A stretch of DNA of 64,000 nt from the NCBI GenBank assembly GCA_021162885.1, contig JAGGXV010000022.1, forward strand, positions 57,571 through 121,570. Direction: 5' to 3'. Origin of the DNA: a bacterium. Lineage in GTDB: Bacteria; Patescibacteriota; Minisyncoccia; Minisyncoccales; CG1-02-41-26. Of the stretch, positions 22,482 through 63,400 are shown piece after piece. Numbering within the stretch: the stretch's first letter is position 1; each line of letters opens with the position of its first letter. Below the pieces are notes generated by a model. It was not told where the DNA came from. It did no database searches and was given only the letters and a program-made list of their open reading frames with translations. The translations under genes and the position numbers were made by a program.

Positions 22482-22802
22482 TTATAGCTTTAAATCTTCC
22501 AATCCTTCTTCTTTCTTTTCTGGAGCCTTCTCTTTTGCGGGAGCTTTTCCGCCGGCGGGCTCTTCAATCTTTAAGTTAACTCTGGCATGATTCTTGAGCC
22601 CAACAATCCGGACAAGATTCCTGATTGCTCTAGCGGTTGCTCCAGCCTTGCCAATAACAGCGCCCATATCTTCAGGATGGACTTTTAGGCTGAGCAAGAC
22701 TCCCATCTCATCCACTTTCCGGTCCACTTTAACATCATCAGGATGATCAACCAAAGCCTTAACTACGTACTCCAGAAATTCTTTATCAGTCTCTTTTGCC
22801 AT
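22482..22802 (-). CDS. KH-domain RNA-binding protein (YlqC/UPF0109 family)
   Basis: MAKETDKEFLEYVVKALVDHPDDVKVDRKVDEMGVLLSLKVHPEDMGAVIGKAGATARAIRNLV. Usual neighbour of rpsP/trmD. Confidence 0.75.
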   Translation of the reverse strand: MAKETDKEFLEYVVKALVDHPDDVKVDRKVDEMGVLLSLKVHPEDMGAVIGKAGATARAIRNLVRIVGLKNHARVNLKIEEPAGGKAPAKEKAPEKKEEGLEDLKL

Positions 22803-23206
22803 ATTCTTTATCTTTGAATTCAATTATTCACTTTTAATCAGTAGCTCGACCTTTCTTTCCTCCGATCTCCTCAATAATTCAGAGAGTCGGTCCTTGAAGA
22901 AAAGCTACATTTTTCATTTTACCCATTTAACAAAATATGTCAAGGGAAATCGCAAAAACTGCCACAAGCAGGATATCAAATAAGCTTTTCTCCAGGAAGC
23001 TGCCAGCAGGTCCCAGAATGATACGAGCATTTTCTGAGAAAGCGAGGAGAGAGATTTTTGTCTCAGGCAATTGCCAGAGACAACTTTCTCGTCTAATGCC
23101 TGATCTGGATTCAGTCCCTCGGGGGAGGGGCTAAAACCTGCTGACAGCTCCCTGAAGAAAAACCCATTTTTAATTTTACCATTTTTTTTCTTCTCCGTCA
23201 AACTCT

Positions 23207-23278
23207 CCCAGTCTCCTAAACCCAGAATAATTAACATTTCGGCACAATCGTGCCCATTTGTTAACGATTGATTTTGTT
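23207..23278. promoter_or_regulatory. 58-bp repeat R1 containing palindromic operator TTAACATTTCGGCACAATCGTGCCCATTTGTTAA (second copy at 27785-27852)
   Basis: Near-identical to 27785-27852 (3 mismatches). Imperfect palindrome with a GCAC-AATC-GTGC core. Lies at the left edge of the GC-rich island. Confidence 0.45.
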
Positions 23279-23364
23279 TCAATTTGGAAAGCTTTTTAAA
23301 GCATTTCAAGTCCAGAATAAATATTTGACACTCTCTTTTAGAATTGCTAAACTGAAGTTAGGAT

Positions 23365-23529
23365 ATGCAAAAAGCAACCACTCAACCAAAAACTAAACTA
23401 CCTCGAATTCAAACCCCAAAAGAAATTCTGAAAATCTGGGAAAGAGCTCGAGGAATATGGAAAAGCAAGAAACTCGACCCTATTAGGTATCTCAAGAAAA
23501 CTCGCAAAGAATGGGAGAAAATTTTGTAA
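23365..23529 (+). CDS. putative VapB-like antitoxin (54 aa)
   Basis: MQKATTQPKTKLPRIQTPKEILKIWERARGIWKSKKLDPIRYLKKTRKEWEKIL. Stops 4 nt before the PIN-domain gene. RGIWK...DPI.Y..K.RKEW pattern resembles small antitoxins. Confidence 0.45.
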   Translation: MQKATTQPKTKLPRIQTPKEILKIWERARGIWKSKKLDPIRYLKKTRKEWEKIL

Positions 23530-23532
23530 TCT

Positions 23533-23904
23533 ATGTTTACTCTCGATACCAATATTATCATTTATTATCTTAAAGATGAATCTAAAGTATTAAAATTTTT
23601 GCGTGAGGAGATTTTAGCCGGCTCACGCTTTTTTATTTCAACAATCACCGAGGCAGAGCTTTTTGGTTATCCTCAAATTACTTCTGAAGAGGCAATAAGA
23701 ATCAACGAAGTTTTAGCCACTCTTTCAATTATTCCTATCGATTCTCAAATAGCCAGATTGGCTGGTCTTTTCAAAAGAAAATATCAGATTTCTCTTCCTG
23801 ATGCCATTATTGCTGCCACCACCTATCTCACTAATTCCACTCTTGTTACTCGCAATATTCGAGATTTCCAAAAAATCAAAGAAATTAAAGTAAAATCTAT
23901 TTAA
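23533..23904 (+). CDS. vapC: PIN-domain toxin VapC
   Basis: MFTLDTNIIIYYLKDE...TITEAELFGYP...ISLPDAIIAATTYLTNSTLVTRNIRDF with PIN acidic residues. Confidence 0.8.
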   Translation: MFTLDTNIIIYYLKDESKVLKFLREEILAGSRFFISTITEAELFGYPQITSEEAIRINEVLATLSIIPIDSQIARLAGLFKRKYQISLPDAIIAATTYLTNSTLVTRNIRDFQKIKEIKVKSI

Positions 23905-24039
23905 CCCTCATCCAATATTTATTTTCAAAGAACTCACTTACAGATTTCCCGTAAGTTTTTTTTATTCCCAATCTCCTAAATCCAGAATAGTTTACCCCAT
24001 TAGAAATGGAATTTCTAAGCAGAGTAAATTCCAAACTTG

Positions 24040-24215
24040 GGAGATTAGGGAAGGAGGGAGATAAAGTGCGAAAAAACTCTTCCTCCTTCCTTATTATTTC
24101 AACCCTTATCTTTTTACAGCCGGCCAGGGTAACTCCGGCTAACCTTTTAGTTTTAGTTCCTCTTCAGAACTATGGCAGTCGGCTACTGTCAGGAATCTTT
24201 GCCGCCTTTTCTCAC
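24040..24215. repeat. about 175-bp repeat, copy A (shared with 25205-25365), begins with purine/pyrimidine hairpin GGAAGGAGG...CCTCCTTCC
   Basis: gggaaggagggagataaagtgcgaaaaaactcttcctccttccttattatttcaacccttatctttttacagccggccagggtaactccggctaaccttttagttttagttcctcttcagaactatggcagtcggctactgtcaggaatctttgccgc is nearly identical in both copies. Confidence 0.6.
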
Positions 24216-24231
24216 CGTGTTACCACGGGAA

Positions 24232-24729
24232 TCACGGCTTATCGACCCTTTCCAAGGCCGATTTTTTACTGTCCAATTTCTGTCCAACCACTACCGCCCA
24301 TTTCCCGGTTCGAATCGCCGCCTCAATTTCTGCTTGGGGTAGATCCGGAGTAATCAACTTGAACGAATCTTCCGGAATGAAATCCACAAGAGAAAGAGTT
24401 GGTTTCCACTCTCTCAGCCCCATCCAGATATTGCTCCTTTCCTGCCGGGAAAATCCAGAATAAACCCCAGCCCGATCAAATGACCCAGCAGGAATAAAGA
24501 CCTTCACATCCCATTTCTGTTTCAACCCAGCAAGAATTCCTTGAATTGCTACTGGTGTCCTGTCCTCATTCCATGGTTCTGAATTCCACTCTCCTCGAGC
24601 GGTCCAGAATTTCAGCTCCTTATAGATAGATTCCGGTTTCCGGCCAATCTCCTCCGACAACCGATAAACTCTTAACACAAAATTAAGCCCGATAAAAACA
24701 AGAACTTTCATTTTTTCACCTCCTTTCAT
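24232..24729 (-). CDS. hypothetical protein (GC-rich island)
   Basis: 165 aa; GC-rich codon usage unlike the host genes. Confidence 0.35.
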   Translation of the reverse strand: MKGGEKMKVLVFIGLNFVLRVYRLSEEIGRKPESIYKELKFWTARGEWNSEPWNEDRTPVAIQGILAGLKQKWDVKVFIPAGSFDRAGVYSGFSRQERSNIWMGLREWKPTLSLVDFIPEDSFKLITPDLPQAEIEAAIRTGKWAVVVGQKLDSKKSALERVDKP

Positions 24730-24730
24730 T

Positions 24731-25078
24731 TCATTTCTTTAACCAGCCCGGTATCGGGACCTCTCGGCCATCTCGCCGAGAGAGCCCTAACTCTTCAAGC
24801 GTAAACTCAAAGAGTACGGCTCCCCGGGAGATGTAACGAGAACATCTTCCTCGTTGGCGAAGAATCTCCTTCTTCACCAGCTCCCGGGCTTCATCCTTCC
24901 GGCCATCTCGAATCAGCTGGATAACCGGAAGATGCCTCCCCTCCGCGAACTTAATTTGTGGATCACCCGGGGAGTAGGCAATCCACAAATCCGGACGTTT
25001 GAAGGGGTTAACTACATAAACAACCCCTTCATCCGCCTTTCGGCCCCGGGGAGGGCCGAGGGATTTAAAAAATTCCAT
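24731..25078 (-). CDS. hypothetical protein (GC-rich island)
   Basis: 115 aa; tightly packed after previous gene. Confidence 0.35.
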   Translation of the reverse strand: MEFFKSLGPPRGRKADEGVVYVVNPFKRPDLWIAYSPGDPQIKFAEGRHLPVIQLIRDGRKDEARELVKKEILRQRGRCSRYISRGAVLFEFTLEELGLSRRDGREVPIPGWLKK

Positions 25079-25204
25079 TTTATCCTCCTTTCCCTGCCTG
25101 CCATTACTGTACTGGTCAGGTCTTACGGGAAAACTCCGTTTAAATTTTTAATCTACTAACCGTTTAAATTTAGAATCTTACTATTCTAAACTTAAATTGG
25201 TTAG

Positions 25205-25365
25205 GGAAGGAGGAAGATAAAGTGGGAAAAAACTCTTCCTCCTTCCTTATTATTTCAACCCTTATCTTTTTGCAGCCGGCCAGGGCGCTCCGGCTAACCT
25301 TTTAGTTTTAGTTCCTCTTCAGAACTATGGCAGTCGGCTACTGCCAGGAATCTTTGCCGCTCTCT
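25205..25365. repeat. about 165-bp repeat, copy B; followed by about 140 nt not present in copy A before homology resumes at cacggcttatcgaccctttgcc
   Basis: See copy A. Plus-strand ORFs over the two copies are in different frames, so the repeat is likely non-coding. Confidence 0.6.
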
Positions 25366-25527
25366 ACCGGGTTGCTGCTGCCCTCCGATTGGTTACGGTT
25401 GAGACAACCTTGGCCCGCAGTTCCCCGTTGTTTACGGGACTGCCCTTCGGCTTCTCGGGCTTACCTCGCTATCATCCCGAGTCGCCTAGACACACGGCTT
25501 ATCGACCCTTTGCCAGGGCCGGGGTTA

Positions 25528-25794
25528 CTACCTCAAAACCTCCCAATTTGTGACCTCCCAAATTCCATAATGGGAGGCCACATCCCCCACACAGGCTTTC
25601 ACCCATGTGAGGACAGAAAACAAACTCATCTGAGGTAGCAACCCAGCGATCGAGAGTTCCAACTCCCCCTTTTTTTTCGGGGTGAGCTGGACGCCCTCGA
25701 TCGCCAGCTCACTTAAAATGTACTTCCGCAATGATTCCGGAAAAGAATCCGGAAACTCTTTTCCGTCATTGCGGAAAATTTTTATTTTTAACAT
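25528..25794 (-). CDS. hypothetical small protein (island)
   Basis: 88 aa; good RBS ggaggtgagaggATG; C-terminal half overlaps the hairpin-rich region. Confidence 0.25.
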   Translation of the reverse strand: MLKIKIFRNDGKEFPDSFPESLRKYILSELAIEGVQLTPKKKGELELSIAGLLPQMSLFSVLTWVKACVGDVASHYGIWEVTNWEVLR

Positions 25795-26023
25795 CCTCTC
25801 ACCTCCATTTTCTCCCCGTCGGGCTCCAAGGCCTTAATGGGGATTGATGCGAGGCCGCTATTCGCGAAATTAGTGGTAAATTCGCGCAAATTCGCGAATA
25901 ACCACGAACACCGGCCTCGCTTCAATTATCCTAAATTACATCTCCTTTCTCAATTCACTAAAATTTAATTAATGGACTAAGAAGGAAGGTGGAAGAAAAT
26001 GGAAACTTTCTTCCACTTTATTT

Positions 26024-26395
26024 CTATTTCTTTTTGTAATAAAACTTTATCGCTTCTTCCACTATCTCAGGAAACTCCGCCTGAGGGTCTTTATCCTTTT
26101 CTGATTTCCAAATAGCAGCTCCAATTGGACAATAGCCAATTCCATAAACTGCATTTTTGCAGACCTTTGGATATTCAGGAGTGTCATGGATTTTACACCT
26201 GGCCTGAATCCATTTATTCCCTTTTTTGTGCCGTCGAACAAGATACTTACAATAGCTACAATCCGATTTCCAGGATCCATCGGGTAATTCCAAAGAATAA
26301 CTCCAACAACACCAGCCGCATCGGAGACAAATAAATGTCTCTCTTGCCATTTTCAGAAACTCCTTGAATTTCTCATAATCAAACTTTTCTGCCAT
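26024..26395 (-). CDS. YkgJ-family putative zinc/iron-chelating Cys-rich protein (CxxCGxCC, PF03692-like)
   Basis: FICLRCGWCCWSYSLELPDG...CSYCKYLV...ARCKIHDTPEYPKVCKNAVYGIGYCP. Confidence 0.55.
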   Translation of the reverse strand: MAEKFDYEKFKEFLKMARETFICLRCGWCCWSYSLELPDGSWKSDCSYCKYLVRRHKKGNKWIQARCKIHDTPEYPKVCKNAVYGIGYCPIGAAIWKSEKDKDPQAEFPEIVEEAIKFYYKKK

Positions 26396-26720
26396 TTTTT
26401 ACTCCTTATAATTTTTTTTTCAAAAGAACTATTTTTTACTCACCCTCCTTACTCAACTCCTTATTTCAGTATAAGGAACTAAGTATGAAGGGGGAAGAAA
26501 AGTAATGAGTAACTTTCTTCCCCTTTTTTTCTAATTGTCCGGGATGTCGGCCGACTTCGAAGGCGCCGACTCTGGCCCTCCCTTAAGGCACGGCTCACCA
26601 AAGGGTTCGCCGTGGAGGTTATTCGCGTAGGACCTTATTTCGGGTTACCCCTTATTCGTGTCCTACCTTATTTCCCTCACCCCAGGCACTAACCCGGCCT
26701 GGCGGGTAATTGCAGGGCGG

Positions 26721-27041
26721 TTACACCTTTACCACATCTCCTACCTTAACGGTAGGAGAGTGGCTTTCCACTACCACCCCACCCAATCTTGGGTCAAAAC
26801 ATCCGACCCAAGTAGTGGGGTGGTAGTGGTGAACCAGCGTGGCAAAAAGCCACACTGGTCCCCGCCCCGAGAGGATGACCCCTTTTTGAGGGTTGACCTC
26901 CGGGGCGGATTTCACCACCCCTTCGAGCTCTTGGGGAGTTAAACTCCCCTCGAGCTCAAACCTGACAAGCGTGAATTGCTCACGCTCATCAGGAAAAAAT
27001 TTCATTTTTCTCACCTCCTTTCCCGAATCCGCAATTTTCAT
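26721..27041 (-). CDS. Csx3/Crn3-like protein (CRISPR-associated cyclic-oligoadenylate ring nuclease / deadenylase family), standalone
   Basis: FTLVRFELEGSLTPQELEGVVKSAPEVNPQKGVILSGRGPVWLFATLVHHYHPTTWVGCFDPRLGGVVVESHSPTVKVGDVV matches the recalled Csx3 core (GV.ISGRGP.WL...LVH..H...WV..FDPRLG..VVV.SH). Alternative start M13 at about 27005. Confidence 0.5.
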   Translation of the reverse strand: MKIADSGKEVRKMKFFPDEREQFTLVRFELEGSLTPQELEGVVKSAPEVNPQKGVILSGRGPVWLFATLVHHYHPTTWVGCFDPRLGGVVVESHSPTVKVGDVVKV

Positions 27042-27092
27042 TCCGAACTCGGGAAATTAGGGAAACCCGAGAGTGTAAAGGTTTCCCTTATT

Positions 27093-27713
27093 TTATTTTT
27101 TATTATCACCTCCTTTCCAAACGACAGCATAGGGAGTGAAAAAGTAATCTGCTTCCCATCCGCCGTCGTAATTAATGTCCCCAAACCTTTTCTTCCCCAT
27201 ATAGGCAATATGCCTCAGGGGATTAAATTTTTCCGGTTTGGGTTTTATCAGCTTCCGCCCTATCCAATTCTGTCCACAAATCCACCGGTCAGCTTCTACC
27301 CAACTGTAAGCCACAACTTCAGCCCAGTTCACTTCCACAATCTGCCAGTTCACTTCCGGGTACTCTTCCTTTACCTTAGGAAAATCAGCTGCTTTTATTG
27401 CCCAGCCCCAGACTCCAGTATCTAGTACCCGCTCCGCTTGAGAATTATCGTAATTAGGATTCCGAATGAACAACAAATCCATCAGGGGACAAATCACATC
27501 TTTCCAGCCAGCAGTGGGTAGTTTCTTCCAGTTGCAGATCGGCATTCCTAACTTGCCACTCTTTTCTCCACAAATCACACATTTCCAATACACCGTTCTC
27601 CGATCAGCACAGTCCCGATAGCATCCTGCATTAACCCACGGACATTCCCCATACCTTAATGCCTTTAAGACATGGGTATGGGTTACCCCAACTTTTTTTT
27701 TCATCTTTCTCAC
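27093..27713 (-). CDS. hypothetical Cys-rich protein (island)
   Basis: 206 aa. N-terminus GECPWVNAGCYRDCADRRTVYWKCVICGEKSGKLGMPICNWKK; Trp-rich C-terminal domain. Confidence 0.4.
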   Translation of the reverse strand: MRKMKKKVGVTHTHVLKALRYGECPWVNAGCYRDCADRRTVYWKCVICGEKSGKLGMPICNWKKLPTAGWKDVICPLMDLLFIRNPNYDNSQAERVLDTGVWGWAIKAADFPKVKEEYPEVNWQIVEVNWAEVVAYSWVEADRWICGQNWIGRKLIKPKPEKFNPLRHIAYMGKKRFGDINYDGGWEADYFFTPYAVVWKGGDNKK

Positions 27714-27784
27714 CTCCCTCCAGCCAACTATTTCTAATTAACTAAAGGGAGGCGAGAAATTCCATATTCAATTTTCAAACAACA

Positions 27785-27900
27785 TCCAGTCTCCTAAACC
27801 CAGAATAATTAACATTTCGGCGCGATCGTGCCCATTTGTTAATGATTATTTCTTGTTTTAATTTTGTAACAAATCTCTGCGATCGTAAGATTTTGTTACA
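27785..27900. promoter_or_regulatory. two tandem palindromic operators with GCGATCG cores upstream of the 27713 gene
   Basis: O1 TTAACATTTCGGCGCGATCGTGCCCATTTGTTAA is a copy of R1. O2 is TGTAACAAATCTCTGCGATCGTAAGATTTTGTTACA. Confidence 0.45.
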
Positions 27901-27962
27901 CTTTATTCCGAACTTGGGAGATTGGGGAACTTAATAAGTTGTGCCTCCTTTCAGTTCCCCGG

Positions 27963-28346
27963 TTATCTATTGTTGAGAGTGCGGCGAGTCCAGTGGGGCT
28001 TCCGAAATTTTTTTACCGCTGGAAAATTCTGGAGAATTTTTTCCACTCGAGCGAGAAACTCTTTCACCAGTTCCTGCCCATTTCCATTTCGAAAAGCAAC
28101 TTCAAGCTCTGTTCCGCTCATCCACATCGGGATAATTCCTCTCTGAAGCGAATCCATTCCTTTTCCATTGAGAATCGCTTTTCTATTCACTGAGAATTGA
28201 ATCGGAAGCCAACTTCCATCGTGTCGAACCCAGAAATCTACCTTGAATTTTTCGTCTTCTGCTCGAGTAGCCCGTCGAACCTCAGTCCCGTTGCGATCCA
28301 GAAGCTCAACCATCCATTCCTCGGCCTTCAAACCGAACTTTTTCAT
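27963..28346 (-). CDS. hypothetical protein (island)
   Basis: 127 aa, no recognisable domain. Confidence 0.35.
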   Translation of the reverse strand: MKKFGLKAEEWMVELLDRNGTEVRRATRAEDEKFKVDFWVRHDGSWLPIQFSVNRKAILNGKGMDSLQRGIIPMWMSGTELEVAFRNGNGQELVKEFLARVEKILQNFPAVKKFRKPHWTRRTLNNR

Positions 28347-28468
28347 CCTTTCTCACCTCCCTTTCTTCTTTCTCAATCCCCTACCTTGTAAGGGACTAAG
28401 AAAGAAAAGGGATGGACTTTGAATTGAGTGCTTCTCTCCAGCCATCCCTTCTGGAGAGAGTTATTGAG

Positions 28469-29083
28469 TTACCATTTTCCGTTGAAAGGGTACACTTTCT
28501 CCACCCGGACATGAGAGAATAACTTAGTATTCTCTAGTCGATCCAAGGTATCCATTAGAATTTCAACCGGTTTCTTTAGGGGTTCCTTCCCAATCCAGTC
28601 ATTACCCAATTCTACAATCGCCCGCACGTAATAGGATTCCGGAGACCAAGTTTGCAAGCCCTTGGCTTCTAATCTATCCGCTGCTTCCTGATCTATCCCG
28701 ACAGACAAATTCATAAGCAAATTGCCATCGGAATTACAATATAGAAACCACTTGAAAGGATTCCCTCTATAGAATCCAGTGCCATATCCGAACCTTCTCG
28801 CCCATGCATGTTTTCCGTCCTCTTCATAAGAACTCTCGAACCTTGTCTCGCACAACTGGAAAAAACTCTCCTGTGCCTTCAATGTATACAGTTCTCCCCG
28901 CAACACCCCAGCTTCATTTTTAATCTTTACCACTTCATTTTCCAGTTCTATTCTTGCAGTTTCCAGAATCTCCACCTTTCCCTTCCATCTCTCCACTTCT
29001 TTCTGAAGAGAAGAGATATAGAATGCTCCGACTGCCACAACGACAGCCAATCCAACTGCCAGACCAATCATACCCTTAGTCAT
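28469..29083 (-). CDS. hypothetical membrane-anchored coiled-coil protein (first gene after the structured leader)
   Basis: 204 aa. N-terminal TM MIGLAVGLAVVVAVGAFYI, coiled coil, then a W/Y-rich globular domain. RBS aggaggaaaggtATG. Confidence 0.4.
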   Translation of the reverse strand: MTKGMIGLAVGLAVVVAVGAFYISSLQKEVERWKGKVEILETARIELENEVVKIKNEAGVLRGELYTLKAQESFFQLCETRFESSYEEDGKHAWARRFGYGTGFYRGNPFKWFLYCNSDGNLLMNLSVGIDQEAADRLEAKGLQTWSPESYYVRAIVELGNDWIGKEPLKKPVEILMDTLDRLENTKLFSHVRVEKVYPFNGKW

Positions 29084-29099
29084 ACCTTTCCTCCTAATT

Positions 29100-29955
29100 T
29101 TTATTCTCCTTCTATTTTAGCAAGGAGTGCACCGCGCACTTTCGGCCAACAACTTACTTTTGGACAGCAAGTGTTGGTTGGCGCGTCCGCCGATGAAAGT
29201 GCACGGGCGCACTCATTACTAAGGTTGAGAGGGGCGGAGGCGAGCGAAATTCACTTTTCTTCTCCTCGGAGAGAAAAGTCAACCTCACTCCTTATTTACG
29301 TCCCTTAGCGGGAAACCTCACATTACATTTACCCCTGATTGCCGCAACCTGTCTTTTAAGGTACTGACTCTCTCCTCTGAGAGAAGGATGGAGGAGAATT
29401 GATTAGGAACTGAGGAAGATTGAGGCCAAAATTTTTAATCTCCTAAGGGAGGGGCTTGCCTTCTTCCTCAAAGCCATTTTATTGCCTACCGAGTAAGGGC
29501 ACACAAAGCCACAAACCAAGCCAGGCATTTTAGCTCACATTCCGCTTTCAGCGAAATGACTCTCTCCTCCATCCTTCTCCCCCAGAAGTTTTTCAACCTC
29601 CGGAAGAGTTCCTTATTAAGTTGGAAGGTGCTTTCTCCTCAAAATTCTTTGAATTTTGAGGACCCCACTTTCGCCAGCGACTCCTTCCGCTTTTAGCGGG
29701 AGTCGTGCTCGCTGGCGGCCAAAGGAGACTTATCTCCTTTGGAATTCTTTTTTTTAAACAAACAGGCGGCTCTCGGAGAGAGCCGCCTGTTTGCTAAATT
29801 TTCGTTATAAAGCTCTATAACGAACGGCTTTTTTTCCGCCACGCTTTTACCGCGCGACGACTCTCTCCTCTGCCCCGTTAGATACGAAGTTATCTAACTG
29901 GGGTCTTTTTTTTTATTTTTATTTAATTTGGAAGAGCTTTTTTATTTTCTCCAGA
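29100..29955 (-). ncRNA. about 850-nt hairpin-rich untranslated leader / candidate ncRNA downstream of the triple promoter
   Basis: No ORF of 60 aa or more on the minus strand. Strong hairpins: aaacaggcggctctc..gagccgcctgttt; cgccagcgagcacgactcccgctaaaagcggaaggagtcgctggcg; ccaaaggagataagtctcctttgg; cctcaaaattcaaagaattttgagg. GAGGAGAGAGTC recurs three times; inverted copies lie about 190 bp apart. Confidence 0.3.
29873..29920 (+). terminator. plus-strand intrinsic-terminator-like hairpin plus T9 run; on the minus strand it sits just downstream of the P1 transcription start
   Basis: ccccgttagatacgaagttatctaactggggtcttttttttt. Confidence 0.35.
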
Positions 29956-29962
29956 CACTTAC

Positions 29963-29991
29963 ATTATAGCATATCGTTAAATTCTTGTCAA
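29963..29991 (-). promoter_or_regulatory. perfect consensus sigma70 promoter P1 (TTGACA-17-TATAAT)
   Basis: Minus strand ccTCTTGACAagaatttaacgatatgcTATAATgta. Confidence 0.7.
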
Positions 29992-30030
29992 GAGGTTTGA
30001 AGGAATTTTCATCTTTTTGCAACCGCTTTA

Positions 30031-30059
30031 ATTATAGTATATTTTCATATTCTTGTCAA
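30031..30059 (-). promoter_or_regulatory. perfect consensus sigma70 promoter P2 (TTGACA-17-TATAAT)
   Basis: Minus strand TTGACAagaatatgaaaatatacTATAATtaa. Confidence 0.7.
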
Positions 30060-30111
30060 GGACATTTGCATTCTTTCAACAAATTTCTTCTCACACTCTC
30101 AGACATTTTTA

Positions 30112-30140
30112 ATTATAGCAAATTGAATTAGTTTTGTCAA
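30112..30140 (-). promoter_or_regulatory. perfect consensus sigma70 promoter P3 (TTGACA-17-TATAAT)
   Basis: Minus strand TTGACAaaactaattcaatttgcTATAATtaa. Confidence 0.7.
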
Positions 30141-30159
30141 GAGCTAAACAACTTATTTA

Positions 30160-30759
30160 TTAATTAAAACCAAATCTGCGTATTTTTTCTGAGGTGCAAC
30201 AAATTTTTTGTGCATTCTTAACGCTCTTTAGCCATTGCCAAAGAACGCTCTCTTTCGTTCTTCCTCTTTCTTTAATGTCTCGATTCATTCTTCTTTGAAG
30301 CCGTAATTTTTCGGGAGCTTCCACAAACACTTTAAGATCAAGTTCTCCTCTCAAAGCCCTATTTAAAGCAAATAACCCCTCAACAATTATCACTTTTGAG
30401 GGGAAATAACTCTCATACCTCACTCTTTTGCGAATAACAAAATTATAAACTGGCTTTCTTATTACCTTACCTTTTTTCAAAAGTTTAAGATGTTTTTTTA
30501 ACAAACTCATCTCAAAAGCCGAGGGACAGTCAAAATTTCTATCTTTCATCTTATCAATTCCAATATAATAGTCATCCATTAGAAAAATTTTAGCCCCTGT
30601 AGCTTTTGAAATGGCTACCGCTACATATCCCTTTCCTGAACCAGAACCTCCAGCAATTCCAATAATAACTACTCCTTTTCCTTTTTCTATTAGTTCTTTT
30701 ATGGAATCTATGATTTTATTAATTCCCTGTTTTAGATTAAATATTTTTTTCTTCCTCAT
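30160..30759 (-). CDS. udk: uridine kinase / phosphoribulokinase-family nucleoside kinase
   Basis: P-loop VVIIGIAGGSGSGKGYVAVAISK; PRK/Udk-like fold. Confidence 0.6.
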   Translation of the reverse strand: MRKKKIFNLKQGINKIIDSIKELIEKGKGVVIIGIAGGSGSGKGYVAVAISKATGAKIFLMDDYYIGIDKMKDRNFDCPSAFEMSLLKKHLKLLKKGKVIRKPVYNFVIRKRVRYESYFPSKVIIVEGLFALNRALRGELDLKVFVEAPEKLRLQRRMNRDIKERGRTKESVLWQWLKSVKNAQKICCTSEKIRRFGFN

Positions 30760-30794: not shown

Positions 30795-31370
30795 TCACCT
30801 CTTTTTTTCCTTATCTTCAGAGGGAGCACTCGCTTTCAGGATGGTATCTGGTGTTTCAGCGGAAGCTTCAGCAGCGACGGATTTCTTCTCTTCTTTCGGC
30901 TCTTCCTCTTGTTTCTCTTTCTGGGTTTTTGGTTGTTTTGGTGGAGTTTTTTCTTCTTTCACCTCTTCTTTTGGTTGCTCTTCTTCCTTTTTTTCCTTTT
31001 CTGGTTCTTTCGATGCCTCTCCAGATGGCACCTCTTTCCCTTTTTCTTCAGTTTCTCTGGCTTCAGCTTTTTCCTCTTTTGCTGCCTCTTTTTCTTTCTT
31101 TTTTGACTTTTTATGAACATCTATTTTCTTTCCTTTAATAATCCCCTCCTTTACTAATAAATTATGAACACTTTCAGATGGTTGAGCGCCAACACCTAAC
31201 CAATGTTTAATGCGTTCTGCCTTCAATTTTTTCTCTTTAGTTAGAGGATTAAAAAATCCAAGAATTTCCAAAAACCTGCCACCTCTTGGTGGATTCTTTT
31301 TGTCGGTAACCACTATTCTGAAAAATGGCTGATTCTTTTTTCCAGTGCGTAAGAAACGAATGACTAACAT
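30795..31370 (-). CDS. rpsP: 30S ribosomal protein S16 with about 100-aa K/E-rich C-terminal extension
   Basis: MLVIRFLRTGKKNQPFFRIVVTDKKNPPRGGRFLEILGFFNP... then KEKEAAKEEKAEARETEEKGKE... tail. Confidence 0.85.
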   Translation of the reverse strand: MLVIRFLRTGKKNQPFFRIVVTDKKNPPRGGRFLEILGFFNPLTKEKKLKAERIKHWLGVGAQPSESVHNLLVKEGIIKGKKIDVHKKSKKKEKEAAKEEKAEARETEEKGKEVPSGEASKEPEKEKKEEEQPKEEVKEEKTPPKQPKTQKEKQEEEPKEEKKSVAAEASAETPDTILKASAPSEDKEKKR

Positions 31371-62989: not shown

Positions 62990-63400
62990 CCGTAATATAT
63001 ATTATTTAATTATACCGTGGGTCCAAAAATATCGCAATGTAGATAAACTTGTTGCGGGGCTGGGAATTGCACCCAGGTCTCGAGGTTCTTTAATGTTAGC
63101 CATTTGTTTCCAAATGGAACGGACTATACCATTCCCCTTCTTTTAATCAAAAGAAGGGGACTCCCATTATAGTCTCTGAACCTTCCAAGCACATATAGCG
63201 TTATATGCTCGGCTTGGCTGCTGATTACCCCACCCACTATGCTAATTGTAGATATTATTCCTTGCTTAGAGGACGGGTTTCTCAGCAATTTAGGGAATTT
63301 TTCACGAAATGTTGCCATTTCGAGCCACAAAGTCTTATGGGCCTCGCAAGATACTACTTCTCCACCCCGCGATTTCATTTTATATTAAATTTAAAAGAAA
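62990..63400 (-). ncRNA. group I intron-like ribozyme core (P, Q, R, S elements, P8 and P9 hairpins)
   Basis: Minus strand: P AAATTGCTGAGAAACCC; Q TAATCAGCAGCC; R GTTCAGAGACTATAATG (Tetrahymena GTTCACAGACTAAATG); P8 CCCCTTCTTTTGATTAAAAGAAGGGG; S GGTATAGTCCG (AAGATATAGTCGG); P9 CCATTTGGAAACAAATGG. Located immediately 5' of the homing-endonuclease ORF. Confidence 0.5.

Follow-up and report, generated by a model that had tools for sequence, protein, structure and literature searches.

In the early region of phage T7, three tandem promoters for the host RNA polymerase (A1–A3) give rise to a polycistronic RNA that is processed by RNase III, and in other transcripts, such as that carrying the cryIIIA leader of Bacillus thuringiensis, STAB-SD elements act as 5' stabilisers. 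Protection of long non-coding transcripts by boxA has been documented for rRNA and for CRISPR arrays (PMC7665894). The boxA consensus, GYTCTTTAANA, comes from gamma-proteobacteria and may not be that of the host considered here, and the C at its position 4 is one of two bases changed in an E. coli mutant that lost boxA function (PMC5725501).

The locus described here lies in a 64 kb stretch of DNA (the window, by which we mean that whole stretch) from a Parcubacteria-like CPR genome. It is located between rpsP and the KH-protein/trmD operon, and comprises three promoters, a structured leader and a flexible island of small genes (Table 1). We propose, at a probability of about 0.5, that a single long transcription unit expresses the island and that the region supplies its promoters and its 5' untranslated leader. 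As in rRNA-operon leaders and lambda nut, tandem promoters of maximal strength precede a promoter-proximal hairpin, a U/A-rich element and a long structured transcript that is closed downstream by long-range helices; nusB and rnc lie just upstream of rpsP, and strand-specific copies of GTTCTTTGAAAA or GTTCTTTAAAAA match 10–11 of the 11 positions of the boxA consensus, which is gamma-proteobacterial and may not be the host's. The locus differs in that the island product is not rRNA, the boxA matches in the leader itself are weak, and the hairpin rather than boxA is the most conserved element. As in attenuators and riboswitch platforms, two strands, GGAGAGAGU and the 3' arm of the hairpin, vie for the same 5' arm and the alternative helix comes first, whereas the U-tract is poor, the intervening segment is variable, and neither a ligand-binding domain nor covariation is found. 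Like STAB-SD elements, the leader carries an SD-like sequence near its 5' end, with no start codon at working distance and recurring beside hairpins; here, however, the box also enters an intramolecular helix, and the likeness is one of sequence. Three strong tandem sigma-70 promoters, a long leader, hairpin-separated small genes and an anti-defence-type gene (Csx3) recall the T7 early region, from which the locus is set apart by its fixed chromosomal site among housekeeping genes and its lack of phage genes or viral matches.

Table 1. Features of the promoter block, leader and island (window coordinates).
Feature	Positions	Strand	Description
P3	30112–30140	-	exact TTGACA-17-TATAAT; extended -10 TG
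P2	30031–30059	-	exact TTGACA-17-TATAAT; no extended -10
P1	29963–29991	-	exact TTGACA-17-TATAAT; extended -10 TG
Head 5' extension	29872–29952	-	hairpin GGAGA...UCUUCC (29930–29952, kept in L003), A-rich tract, hairpin 29872–29904
First GAGGAGAGAGTC box	29859–29870	-	SD-like; no usable start codon
Head hairpin	29759–29793	-	ACAGGCGGCUCUC-UCC-GAGAGCCGCCUGU; 16 bp here; family signature
U/A-rich tract UUUGUUUAAAA	29752–29762	-	directly after head hairpin; weak boxA-like match (9/11)
Hairpin block	29600–29750	-	four strong local hairpins, e.g. 29719–29742 CCAAAGGAGA-UAAG-UCUCCUUUGG
Module B	29366–29588	-	~200-nt multi-branched domain; 19–26 bp closing helix, arms 29563–29588 / 29372–29397
Second GAGGAGAGAGTC box	29558–29569	-	inside module B
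Third GAGGAGAGAGTC box	29366–29377	-	just after module B
GUACCUUAAAA	29354–29364	-	after third box; weak boxA-like match (9/11)
Module D	29222–29297	-	AAAUAAGGAGUGAGG, then hairpin; 5' end shared with L013, L017, L024
Module C	29118–29221	-	~100 nt, Y-shaped; immediately 5' of the first gene's ribosome-binding site
First island gene	28469–29083	-	204 aa; begins at 29083, preceded by an AGGAGG ribosome-binding site; N-terminal membrane helix and coiled coil
Flexible island	22944–30159	-	~7–8 kb; ~45% GC against ~34% in the flanks; ~45% non-coding

The island contains eight small ORFs on the same strand, including an orphan Csx3/Crn3, and an opposite-strand PIN toxin pair; the largest ORF does not exceed 206 aa. 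Only Csx3/Crn3 and PIN are recognisable, the seven other island ORFs having no family in Pfam, NCBIfam, PADLOC or PHROGs. The first gene belongs to no recognised family and has a single distant homologue among 5.8 billion proteins searched; besides their own near-identical clusters, one homologous cluster was found for this gene and six for the 127-aa gene. Across loci, the gene order is rnhB-rpmF-nusB-rnc-rpsP, then the head described below with 0.7 to >12 kb of DNA, then KH-trmD. In the closest syntenic relative (L025), 556 nt take the place of the 8.1 kb of the window (31039–22944), and both flanks are 72–77% identical in nucleotide sequence. A literature search found no paper on this rpsP-KH island locus. 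TIGR arrays, which are known from CPR, were dismissed: the leader shows no tandem interspaced repeats, the island ORFs reach at most 206 aa, and Csx3 and PIN are the only recognised products.

Exact matches to TTGACA-N17-TATAAT occur three times in the window, all on the minus strand; about 0.02 would be expected by chance, and three were reached in none of 100 shuffles. Allowing up to one mismatch gives seven sites in the window, P1–P3 being the only exact ones. The initial annotation had called this tandem arrangement extraordinary, which holds for the sequence; in the family, one consensus promoter is the norm, and a sister strain lacks P2. In 11 of 13 other loci, an exact-hexamer promoter with 16–17 bp spacing lies 72–200 nt upstream of the hairpin that marks the family, and a perfect promoter directly follows rpsP in three of four island-less relatives (L025, L026 and L027). 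By position, P1 is the counterpart of the relatives' single promoter, and P2 and P3 are local copies; transcription from P1 would start near 29956. The initial transcribed bases of P3 (GTCTGAGAG) and P1 (GTCTGGAGA) are alike, and the repeat search placed P3 in a repeat family (D3) with 76% identity over 34 nt. The sister-strain contig (L001) confirms P1 but diverges upstream of 30042; five substitutions at 30016–30035 include two that turn the P2 -10 element into TCTAAG, and the sequence is unrelated where the P2 -35 element sits (30054–30059). Since L001 lacks P2 and P3 is seen in one assembly only, P2 and P3 are strain-specific or uncorroborated.

The leader opens with a head composed of a perfect promoter, an SD-like GGAGAGAG(U) box, a GC-rich hairpin of 13–16 bp and a U/A-rich tract. 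Homologous heads are present in 13 other non-redundant loci (14 heads with the window), and 19 public contigs bear one, mostly at the same syntenic position. Two routes led to the family: a protein homologue of the first gene (L003), and a DNA pattern that gave three true matches in a set of 185,579 species genomes and, in metagenomes, 16 matches of which all 16 were true. The invariance of the hairpin apex is partly imposed by this search pattern, of which only the window and L003 are independent. Across 13 heads, 96.4% of the cells in the hairpin are paired, with three compensatory pairs, and one of 500 shuffles does as well; of the 14 heads, 12 carry a GGAGAGAG-type box, and all 14 have a UU(U)RA(A) motif 6–8 nt past the hairpin. 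The compact heads of other genomes lack the 5' extension. In three loci (L009, L017 and L022) a ribosome-binding site and ORF begin 20–70 nt past the head, and polymerase must therefore read through the hairpin. Among the options listed by the initial annotation, a riboregulatory leader is favoured by these ORFs and by the position of module C, which abuts the first ORF both in the window and in L019.

The first GAGGAGAGAGTC box can pair over 13 bp with GGCGGCUCUCUCC, which makes up the 5' arm and the loop of the head hairpin, forming an alternative helix. Across the family, this helix (GGAGAGAGU with RCUCUCUCC) has 93% of its cells paired. For each of 12 heads out of 12 it is also the minimum free energy (MFE) structure of the partial transcript, although the variable insert between its strands ranges from 23 to 70 nt. 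The strands are invariant and of low complexity and show no covariation, so that the alternative helix is without evolutionary support; in L012, whose hairpin loop is inverted, the helix is broken. The inserts are unrelated in sequence, contain no conserved aptamer domain and match no Rfam riboswitch.

Based on these observations, we suggest that the promoters would fire at a very high rate and that the head would act as a co-transcriptional two-state device: the GGAGAGAG box would first pair with CUCUCUCC (5' arm and loop), and its displacement would allow the hairpin to form, which would set the extent of read-through by RNA polymerase. An rrn/nut-like boxA role may fall to the U/A-rich tract that follows the hairpin and to the clear boxA-like GTTCTTTGAAAA copies elsewhere in the islands, rendering polymerase termination-resistant over a long untranslated RNA. 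Of 21 boxA-like copies with at most one mismatch, 20 lie on the strand of the head transcript, including nine in a 12-kb stretch of L015; exact or one-mismatch copies occur deeper in the island of the window (23922–23933 and 27772–27783) and also in other islands. The two matches in the leader itself both lack the C at position 4. Searching the literature for the motif brought up nothing relevant, the sole match being a paper on CodY. Processing may be served by the long helices and by the recurring units of SD-like box and hairpin, which may also stabilise the 5' end of the polycistronic RNA. Taken from the sequence, the picture is of a cis-acting leader whose head would gate read-through and whose downstream modules would shape processing and stability; processing into stable pieces is conceivable.

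Downstream of the head, the remaining ~650 nt of the leader consist of structured RNA modules in series. Three of these or more (B, C and D) recur in other islands, in other combinations; each was compared in 2–4 sequences, and the three long leaders were related by anchored local comparison after a global MAFFT alignment had misaligned them. The inverted pair already marked by the initial annotation is borne out: its 26-nt arms are 85% complementary, include an exact core of 17 nt and form the closing helix of module B. Likewise, the repeated sequence seen there proved to be three exact GAGGAGAGAGTC copies (0.00 expected), spaced by 192 and 301 nt. Module B is common to the window, L011 and L015, its closing helix carrying one compensatory change from A-U to G-C, and ACCUUAAAA follows it in L015 as GUACCUUAAAA does in the window. 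The hairpin of module D (29254–29278) has an apex, UCUCUCCGAG, that resembles that of the head hairpin. Module C has a homologue in L019, upstream of an unrelated ORF; of 37 shared pairs, 30 are identical, three are changed on one side, four are compensatory and none is broken. The proposal that the region encodes a structured, conserved RNA, for which a search for homologues had been advised, is thus upheld by homologous heads and by modules with compensatory pairs.

An alternative is that the region encodes one or more abundant stand-alone ncRNAs, either an RNA of ~200 nt ending at the head hairpin as terminator or module B, excised at its 20-bp closing helix as a stable RNA of ~170 nt; in the latter case the RNA would be trans-acting, and its exposed GGAGAGAG box might bind C/U-rich targets or the anti-SD sequence. 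Promoters of maximal strength are typical of stable RNA genes, in the window UUUGUUU comes after the GC-rich hairpin, tracts of the CUCUCUCC type are seen again in other modules of the islands, and module B is self-contained, occurs in three loci and has a closing helix of sufficient length for RNase III. However, most relatives have poor U-tract tails (over the 14 heads, 2–5 of the 8 nt behind the 13-bp stem are U; UUGUUUAA in the window), and the ORFs 20–70 nt downstream depend on read-through. A terminator scan flags the window hairpin on the opposite strand only; a bidirectional terminator was rejected, the plus-strand T-run being peculiar to the window and not conserved. Furthermore, the modules occur in varying combinations and always in cis to ORFs, which also speaks against the single large ncRNA, or array of them, entertained in the initial annotation. 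Like OLE, GOLLD, ROOL, HEARO and raiA, the leader is ~0.8 kb long, extreme in predicted structure and situated in variable DNA, but it matches no covariance model, and only its sub-modules are conserved, in shifting order and always upstream of ORFs. At gathering thresholds, none of the 4227 families of Rfam 15 matches the leader in a search of the window and 17 loci; the best sub-threshold match scores 25.7 bits against a threshold of 100. Further searches (E≤10 on 28800–30300, E≤1 on 22700–28900) gave nothing relevant, and the tRNA/tmRNA scan found neither in the region, ARAGORN detecting no tmRNA. The other matches above threshold are tRNAs and an L10 leader in L025, together with a group I intron at 63100–63347, outside the leader; neither the window nor any of the retrieved loci contains an rRNA gene. 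The scan that the initial annotation had recommended thus yields no known family, and stand-alone ncRNAs are, on balance, unlikely.

Secondly, the leader could be an assembly of orphaned intergenic modules without collective function, i.e. UTR and intergenic pieces left over after loss of cassette ORFs, with the triple promoter as a neutral duplication and only the head and module C at work. In keeping with such an inert mosaic, modules are shuffled between genomes, the island is ~45% non-coding and contains an internal duplication of ~160 nt (96–99% identical), the sister strain lacks P2, and the block at 29600–29750 has no homologue in any fetched locus. Against it stand the folding of the leader, the conserved order of its parts and their conserved pairing. 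The strong hairpins remarked on at the outset are reflected in an MFE of -367.8 kcal/mol for the 877-nt transcript (z = -13 against dinucleotide shuffles), and folding is strand-specific across the whole leader, the sense strand being 49 kcal/mol more stable than the antisense strand (27 against 14 G.U pairs). The same order of head and then module B is found in leaders of 780–880 nt from three different genomes, and the pairing of module C and of the module B closing helix is kept across substitutions. The repeat search detected no tandem, periodic or CRISPR-like array in the leader, and the leader is not assembled from repeats that other parts of the window contain. We regard the inert mosaic as quite unlikely.

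The proposed cis-acting leader may also be set against two readings that centre on cassette exchange. In the first, which we consider decidedly unlikely, the head loci would constitute a new RNA-centred, integrase-less, integron-like cassette system in CPR, or a module such as B would be a new trans-acting structured RNA. A mobile head (perfect promoter and invariant palindromic hairpin) would serve both as expression driver and as insertion or exchange point, and the structured RNA modules, including boxA-like loaders, would let promoterless small-gene cassettes be swapped and expressed.

In the second, the function would reside in DNA recombination: the near-perfect head palindrome (arms of 11–13 bp, asymmetric centre) would be a site of recombination or insertion and the imperfect inverted repeats behind the ORFs would be cassette boundaries, giving an integron-like promoter-plus-cassette array without a recognisable integrase. 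The locus resembles an integron (Pc, attI and attC) in that a single strong promoter stands before a series of small ORFs, most of which lack a strong promoter-like site, that every ORF has a structured imperfect inverted repeat behind it, and that cassette content varies among close relatives. Between closely related heads homology stops within a few bases after the hairpin, and units of an ORF and its 3' repeat move between genomes as blocks. In addition, the head hairpin has four mismatches, each of them A.C in the sense orientation; the antisense strand would have G.U at these positions, a weak hint that the opposite strand, or DNA, is what folds. In L012 the loop is inverted. On the other hand, no island ORF contains a recombinase or integrase domain (Pfam, NCBIfam, PADLOC, PHROGs), each locus has one head hairpin rather than a flanking pair, and attC-type GTTRRRY or RYYYAAC cores are absent, the cassette repeats reading UCUCCCAAGUUCAGAAU...AUUCUGGAUUUAGGAGA. 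The G.U pairs in these repeats favour the sense RNA, which folds better, and homologous recombination in the conserved flanks (rpsP and KH) can account for the exchange. A DNA recombination system is therefore, in our view, very unlikely.

A leader peptide has also been considered. In compact heads, an AUG 16 nt past the GGAGAGAG box opens a 14-codon frame (MTPQAALSESRLLx) across the hairpin, with the stop right after it; its translation would melt the hairpin, giving ribosome-mediated attenuation. AUG and in-frame stop are present in six heads, two synonymous changes in L012 leave MTPQ intact, and in L006 the AUG opens an ORF of 40 codons instead. Six heads (the window, L003, L007, L013, L015 and L022), however, have no start codon in frame, and the U/A stop motif is kept where it is out of frame (L006, L013, L015). 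The leader of ~880 nt contains no credible ORF (the longest on the minus strand at 29084–29962 is 49 aa), the initial annotation having seen none of 60 aa or more, and its small ORFs have neither ribosome-binding sites nor conservation, which argues against the tiny-peptide genes also suggested there and makes a leader peptide highly improbable.

Finally, an artefact (chance, chimera, or vector, phage or plasmid sequence) has a negligible probability and is refuted where P1 and the leader are concerned. Engineered vectors often contain perfect promoters, and P3 is seen in one assembly, but the leader recurs at 99.85–99.95% identity in L001 and L002, which come from other samples, 19 public contigs bear a head, and neither 72,556 plasmids and 50,697 phages (blastn) nor 2.9 million viral contigs (four motifs) gave a match. 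The leader is thus neither artefactual nor of vector or phage origin, and it belongs to no known RNA family; the interpretation offered by the initial annotation is, as a whole, partly supported.

Gene regulation in CPR/Patescibacteria is almost unstudied and the organisms are uncultured. The locus provides a directly searchable promoter-and-leader signature, shared by at least 14 non-redundant loci. It also offers several candidate families of structured RNA that Rfam lacks, and an rpsP-KH hot spot at which genomes exchange small ORFan genes, among them toxin-antitoxin pairs and the gene of an orphan cA4 ring nuclease. Should the head turn out to control read-through or antitermination, it would be the first element of its kind described for this lineage and could serve CPR genetics as a strong expression cassette that is ready to use; should the modules turn out to be cassette boundaries, they would represent a new route of gene flux in reduced genomes.

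The initial annotation's three exact consensus promoters are confirmed: the 64-kb window contains exactly three TTGACA-N17-TATAAT matches, all on the minus strand, against ~0.02 expected by chance, and just seven of its sites lie within one mismatch of the consensus. As judged by their sequence, P1–P3 are maximal promoters. The leader is reproduced at 99.85–99.95% identity in two contigs assembled from other samples, one of which, the sister-strain contig L001, diverges from the window upstream of 30042 and carries five substitutions at 30016–30035, two of which change the P2 -10 hexamer to TCTAAG; P3 is seen in a single assembly only. P1 is thus solid, P2 strain-specific and P3 a one-assembly feature. 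Comparison of L001 1–55 with window 30016–30070 reveals unrelated sequence upstream of 30042 and no consensus P2 in L001, and therefore promoter copy number and the left boundary of the island vary within the population.

The region between P1 and the first island gene is indeed hairpin-dense and free of long same-strand ORFs, as first described: its 877-nt transcript folds with z = -13, and the longest ORF is 49 aa. Folding favours the sense over the antisense strand by 49 kcal/mol, and the sense strand forms twice as many G·U pairs. Also correct were the three copies of GAGGAGAGAGTC (29859–29870, 29558–29569 and 29366–29377; zero expected) and the long inverted pair, which closes module B. 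The second box lies inside this domain and the third just after it. Module B also occurs 3' of the head in two relative contigs, L011 and L015, with one compensatory A-U to G-C change in the closing helix. A module C homologue precedes an unrelated ORF in contig L019; among the 37 common pairs, 30 are unchanged, three one-sided, four compensatory and none broken. The block between module B and the head has no homologue in any fetched locus, and the Rfam scan proposed at the outset matched no part of the leader to any family. The leader is non-coding, structured in a strand-specific manner and built of modules conserved in base pairing.

Features of the island, its flanks and other non-coding elements in the window
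Feature	Position	Strand	Description
Group I intron	63100–63347 (flanks to ~63380 and ~63050)	-	Rfam 69 bits
rpsP	30795–31370		
Uridine-kinase-like gene	30160–30759	-	
P3	30112–30140	-	exact TTGACA-N17-TATAAT; extended -10 TG
P2	30031–30059	-	exact TTGACA-N17-TATAAT
P1	29963–29991	-	exact TTGACA-N17-TATAAT; extended -10 TG
Head	29752–29960	-	hairpin 29759–29793, box, U/A tract
Unmatched block	29600–29750	-	four strong hairpins
Module B	29366–29588	-	~200-nt multi-branch domain; closing arms 29372–29397/29563–29588
Module D	29222–29297	-	AAUAAGGAGUG and hairpin, common to L013, L017, L024
Module C	29118–29221	-	directly 5' of first gene's ribosome-binding site
Eight small island ORFs	28469–29083 down to 24232–24729	-	
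Orphan Csx3/Crn3	26721–27041	-	cyclic-tetra-adenylate ring nuclease; Pfam E = 8e-30
~320-nt conserved non-coding element	25200–25520; truncated copy 24045–24257	-	GGUCGAUAAGCCGUG...GGCAGUCCCGUAAACAACGGGGAACUGCGGGCC...GCCGGAG..CCGGCUG...
Imperfect inverted repeat	23968–24044, 27786–27929, partial 23208–23285	-	UCUCCCAAGUUCAGAAU-(12–48 nt hairpin)-AUUCUGGAUUUAGGAGA
PIN-domain toxin and small upstream partner	23533–23904	+	
~190-nt conserved non-coding domain	22980–23170	-	long closing helix CAGGGAGCUGUCAGCAGGU...ACCUGCUGGCAGCUUCCUGG; also L029 1400–1620
KH/trmD operon promoter and structured leader	22830–22943	-	also L025–L029, L006, L024
KH-domain protein gene	22482–22823		trmD next

A search of 5.8 billion proteins yields only one distant homologue of the first island gene, on contig L003, where a KE-rich rpsP-like tail is followed by one TTGACA-16-TATAAT and a leader. 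The L003 and window leaders have in common a AGGAGAGAG box and the hairpin ACAG-NNNN-CTCTCTCCGAGAG-NNNN-CT, and this pattern was scanned in GTDB contigs (one genome per species) and metagenomes. The GTDB scan returned three true matches (Candidatus Nealsonbacteria, 'Saccharibacteria' and Patescibacteria) and two chance matches, and all 16 metagenome matches were true; removal of duplicates left 14 head loci, window included. Exact hexamers with 16–17 bp spacing lie 72–200 nt 5' of the head hairpin at 12 of the 14, and multiple such promoters occur in the window alone. The visible upstream gene is usually rpsP and the visible downstream end is the KH gene. Compact heads are as conserved in nucleotide sequence as the rpsP coding core; sequence 3' of the hairpin is wholly different even in close relatives (0.7 kb to >12 kb). 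An unbiased sample obtained through KH-protein homologues included four genomes (L025–L028) with only 110–525 nt between rpsP and KH. A perfect consensus promoter directly follows rpsP in three of them, and all four lack the head hairpin, so the head belongs to the island and not to the KH operon. What is conserved is one consensus promoter together with the head.

Across 13 heads, 96.4% of cells in the hairpin are paired and three pairs are changed on both sides, a result equalled by only one of 500 shuffles; the invariance of the apex is partly an ascertainment artefact of the search pattern. The GGAGAGAG(U) box can alternatively pair with RCUCUCUCC in the 5' arm and loop of the hairpin. This alternative helix is 93% paired and reaches 13 bp in the window; its strands are invariant across heads, and it therefore shows no covariation. 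Partial transcripts have this helix as their minimum-energy fold in 12 of 12 heads, despite an unrelated insert of 23–70 nt between the strands. In L012 (~1117–1145, promoter orientation) the three-base loop of the hairpin reads GGA and not UCC, an inversion that leaves the orientation of arms and flanks unchanged and bears the signature of template switching inside a palindrome, or of DNA-level events. All heads carry a UU(U)RA(A) tract 6–8 nt after the hairpin. Since the tails are poor U-tracts (2–5 U of 8), the hairpin would be a leaky terminator at most. In relatives, ORFs start 20–70 nt past the head, so there the head lies in the 5' UTR and polymerase has to traverse it before it can transcribe them. 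The weak terminators and the dependence of downstream ORFs on read-through make a stand-alone small or excised RNA unlikely.

We consider it somewhat less likely still that the leader is an inert mosaic of orphaned modules; module shuffling and strain variation would fit, but the extreme, strand-specific folding stability and the presence in three genomes of 780–880-nt leaders in which B likewise follows the head do not. A DNA-level, integron-like system is improbable, though it has some support: homology breaks directly after the hairpin, ORF-plus-repeat units move together, the L012 loop is inverted and all four hairpin mismatches are A·C on the sense strand. Against it, the island ORFs include no recombinase, there are no attC cores, and each locus has one head site. 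Six compact heads (L005, L009, L011, L012, L017 and L019) contain a 14-codon putative leader-peptide ORF, MTPQAALSESRLLx, which opens 16 nt 3' of the GGAGAGAG box, runs through the hairpin and ends directly past it, but in the window and five further heads this frame lacks a start codon. For P1 and the leader, artefact or contamination, including the assembly chimera or vector sequence initially considered, is excluded by the leader in two other-sample contigs, the heads in metagenomes and the lack of blastn hits in plasmids and phages.

GC content is ~34% in the flanks vs ~45% in the block at ~24000–30000, and the gene order is rnhB, rpmF, nusB, rnc, rpsP, uridine-kinase-like gene, P3-P2-P1, leader, eight ORFs, PIN pair, KH and trmD. 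By our count, ~45% of the island is non-coding. Recognisable families among its proteins are Csx3/Crn3 and the PIN toxin only; the island ORFs include no recognisable Cas protein besides Csx3/Crn3, and no CRISPR-like repeat array accompanies them. Whereas the window has the uridine-kinase-like gene upstream of the promoters, L022 has it (1045–1662) downstream of the head, within the island; the gene thus behaves as a cassette gene. The PIN pair opposes island transcription in both the window and L015 (1356–1727), and island read-through would be antisense to it. In L025, the closest syntenic relative fetched (KH protein 95% identical), 556 nt correspond to 8.1 kb of the window (31039 to 22944), and either flank aligns at 72–77% nucleotide identity. 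A separate promoter (TTGACA-16-TAAAAT at ~22916–22943), conserved as TTGACA-16/17-TAAAAT, serves the KH gene; the conserved structured leader of the KH operon, GUAGCUUUUCUUCAG...GAAAGGUCGAGCUACU, matches no Rfam family at the gathering threshold.

Directly upstream of this promoter, the ~190-nt domain holds in its loop CUCUCUCC, the complement of the GGAGAGAG box; an overlapping, mechanically called 131-aa ORF (22914–23309) is probably not a gene. The ~320-nt element is itself a candidate structured RNA. Its two island copies are 96–99% identical, a diverged homologue lies in L029 (470–830), shorter pieces occur in L003 and L005, and no Rfam family matches it. The repeat UCUCCCAAGUUCAGAAU...AUUCUGGAUUUAGGAGA recurs in L005, L009, L012, L022, L025 and L029, follows a cassette ORF wherever context was read (window, L009, L022, L025 and L029), and in L005, L009 and L022 keeps a C·A mismatch and G·U positions; its appearance is that of a cassette-boundary or 3'-UTR module. 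Outside the island, the group I intron splits a tRNA anticodon loop; ARAGORN calls the tRNA once the flanks are joined, with an ambiguous anticodon (Leu or Phe). Such tRNA introns in Patescibacteria were reported in a 2025 bioRxiv preprint.

Hairpins in the islands are repeatedly followed by a boxA-like motif, GTTCTTTGAAAA or GTTCTTTAAAAA, with 20 of 21 copies on the head-transcript strand; L015 has nine within 12 kb and the window island two (23922–23933 and 27772–27783, minus strand). GTTCTTTGAAAA stands directly 3' of hairpin modules and almost always keeps this strand, even beside opposite-strand PIN/antitoxin genes. Both versions match 10–11 of 11 positions of the published consensus GYTCTTTAANA, which is gamma-proteobacterial (PMC5725501), and the boxA consensus drifts between phyla (PMC7665894). 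The window's own leader has only 9/11 matches to that consensus, which makes the boxA step tentative at this locus.

We propose that the head acts as a kinetic two-state switch, in which the box-to-arm helix would form first and its displacement would be required for hairpin formation. Rather than terminating, the hairpin may bind a protein or polymerase in the manner of boxB or put. The repeated units of SD-like box and hairpin, together with the long closing helices, could plausibly serve as 5' stabilisers and RNase III sites. This reading is drawn, as analogy only, from STAB-SD and T7 early RNA. The boxA-like motifs may direct Nus-type protection of untranslated island RNA. BoxA-dependent Nus complexes shield long untranslated transcripts (rRNA, CRISPR arrays) from Rho (PMC7665894), and an island with 45% untranslated RNA would be the sort of unit needing such protection.

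The closest working likeness is an rrn- or nut-type leader with an attenuator-like alternative helix, and the placement at the front of a flexible island resembles that of the integron Pc promoter. The element cannot be placed in any of these classes: boxA matches in its leader reach 9/11, the hairpin tails are poor as the U-tracts of attenuators and riboswitches, a conserved sensor is absent, and so are the defining characters of integrons. We found no description of it in Rfam 15 or the searchable literature. We see a small chance that it is categorically different, either a cassette system of RNA modules or a novel trans-acting RNA, and rate it as a leader and regulatory RNA family specific to its lineage, at the front of a flexible island, with a function that is probably cis-regulatory. 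It is a real and conserved element that lacks annotation and is amenable to experiments.
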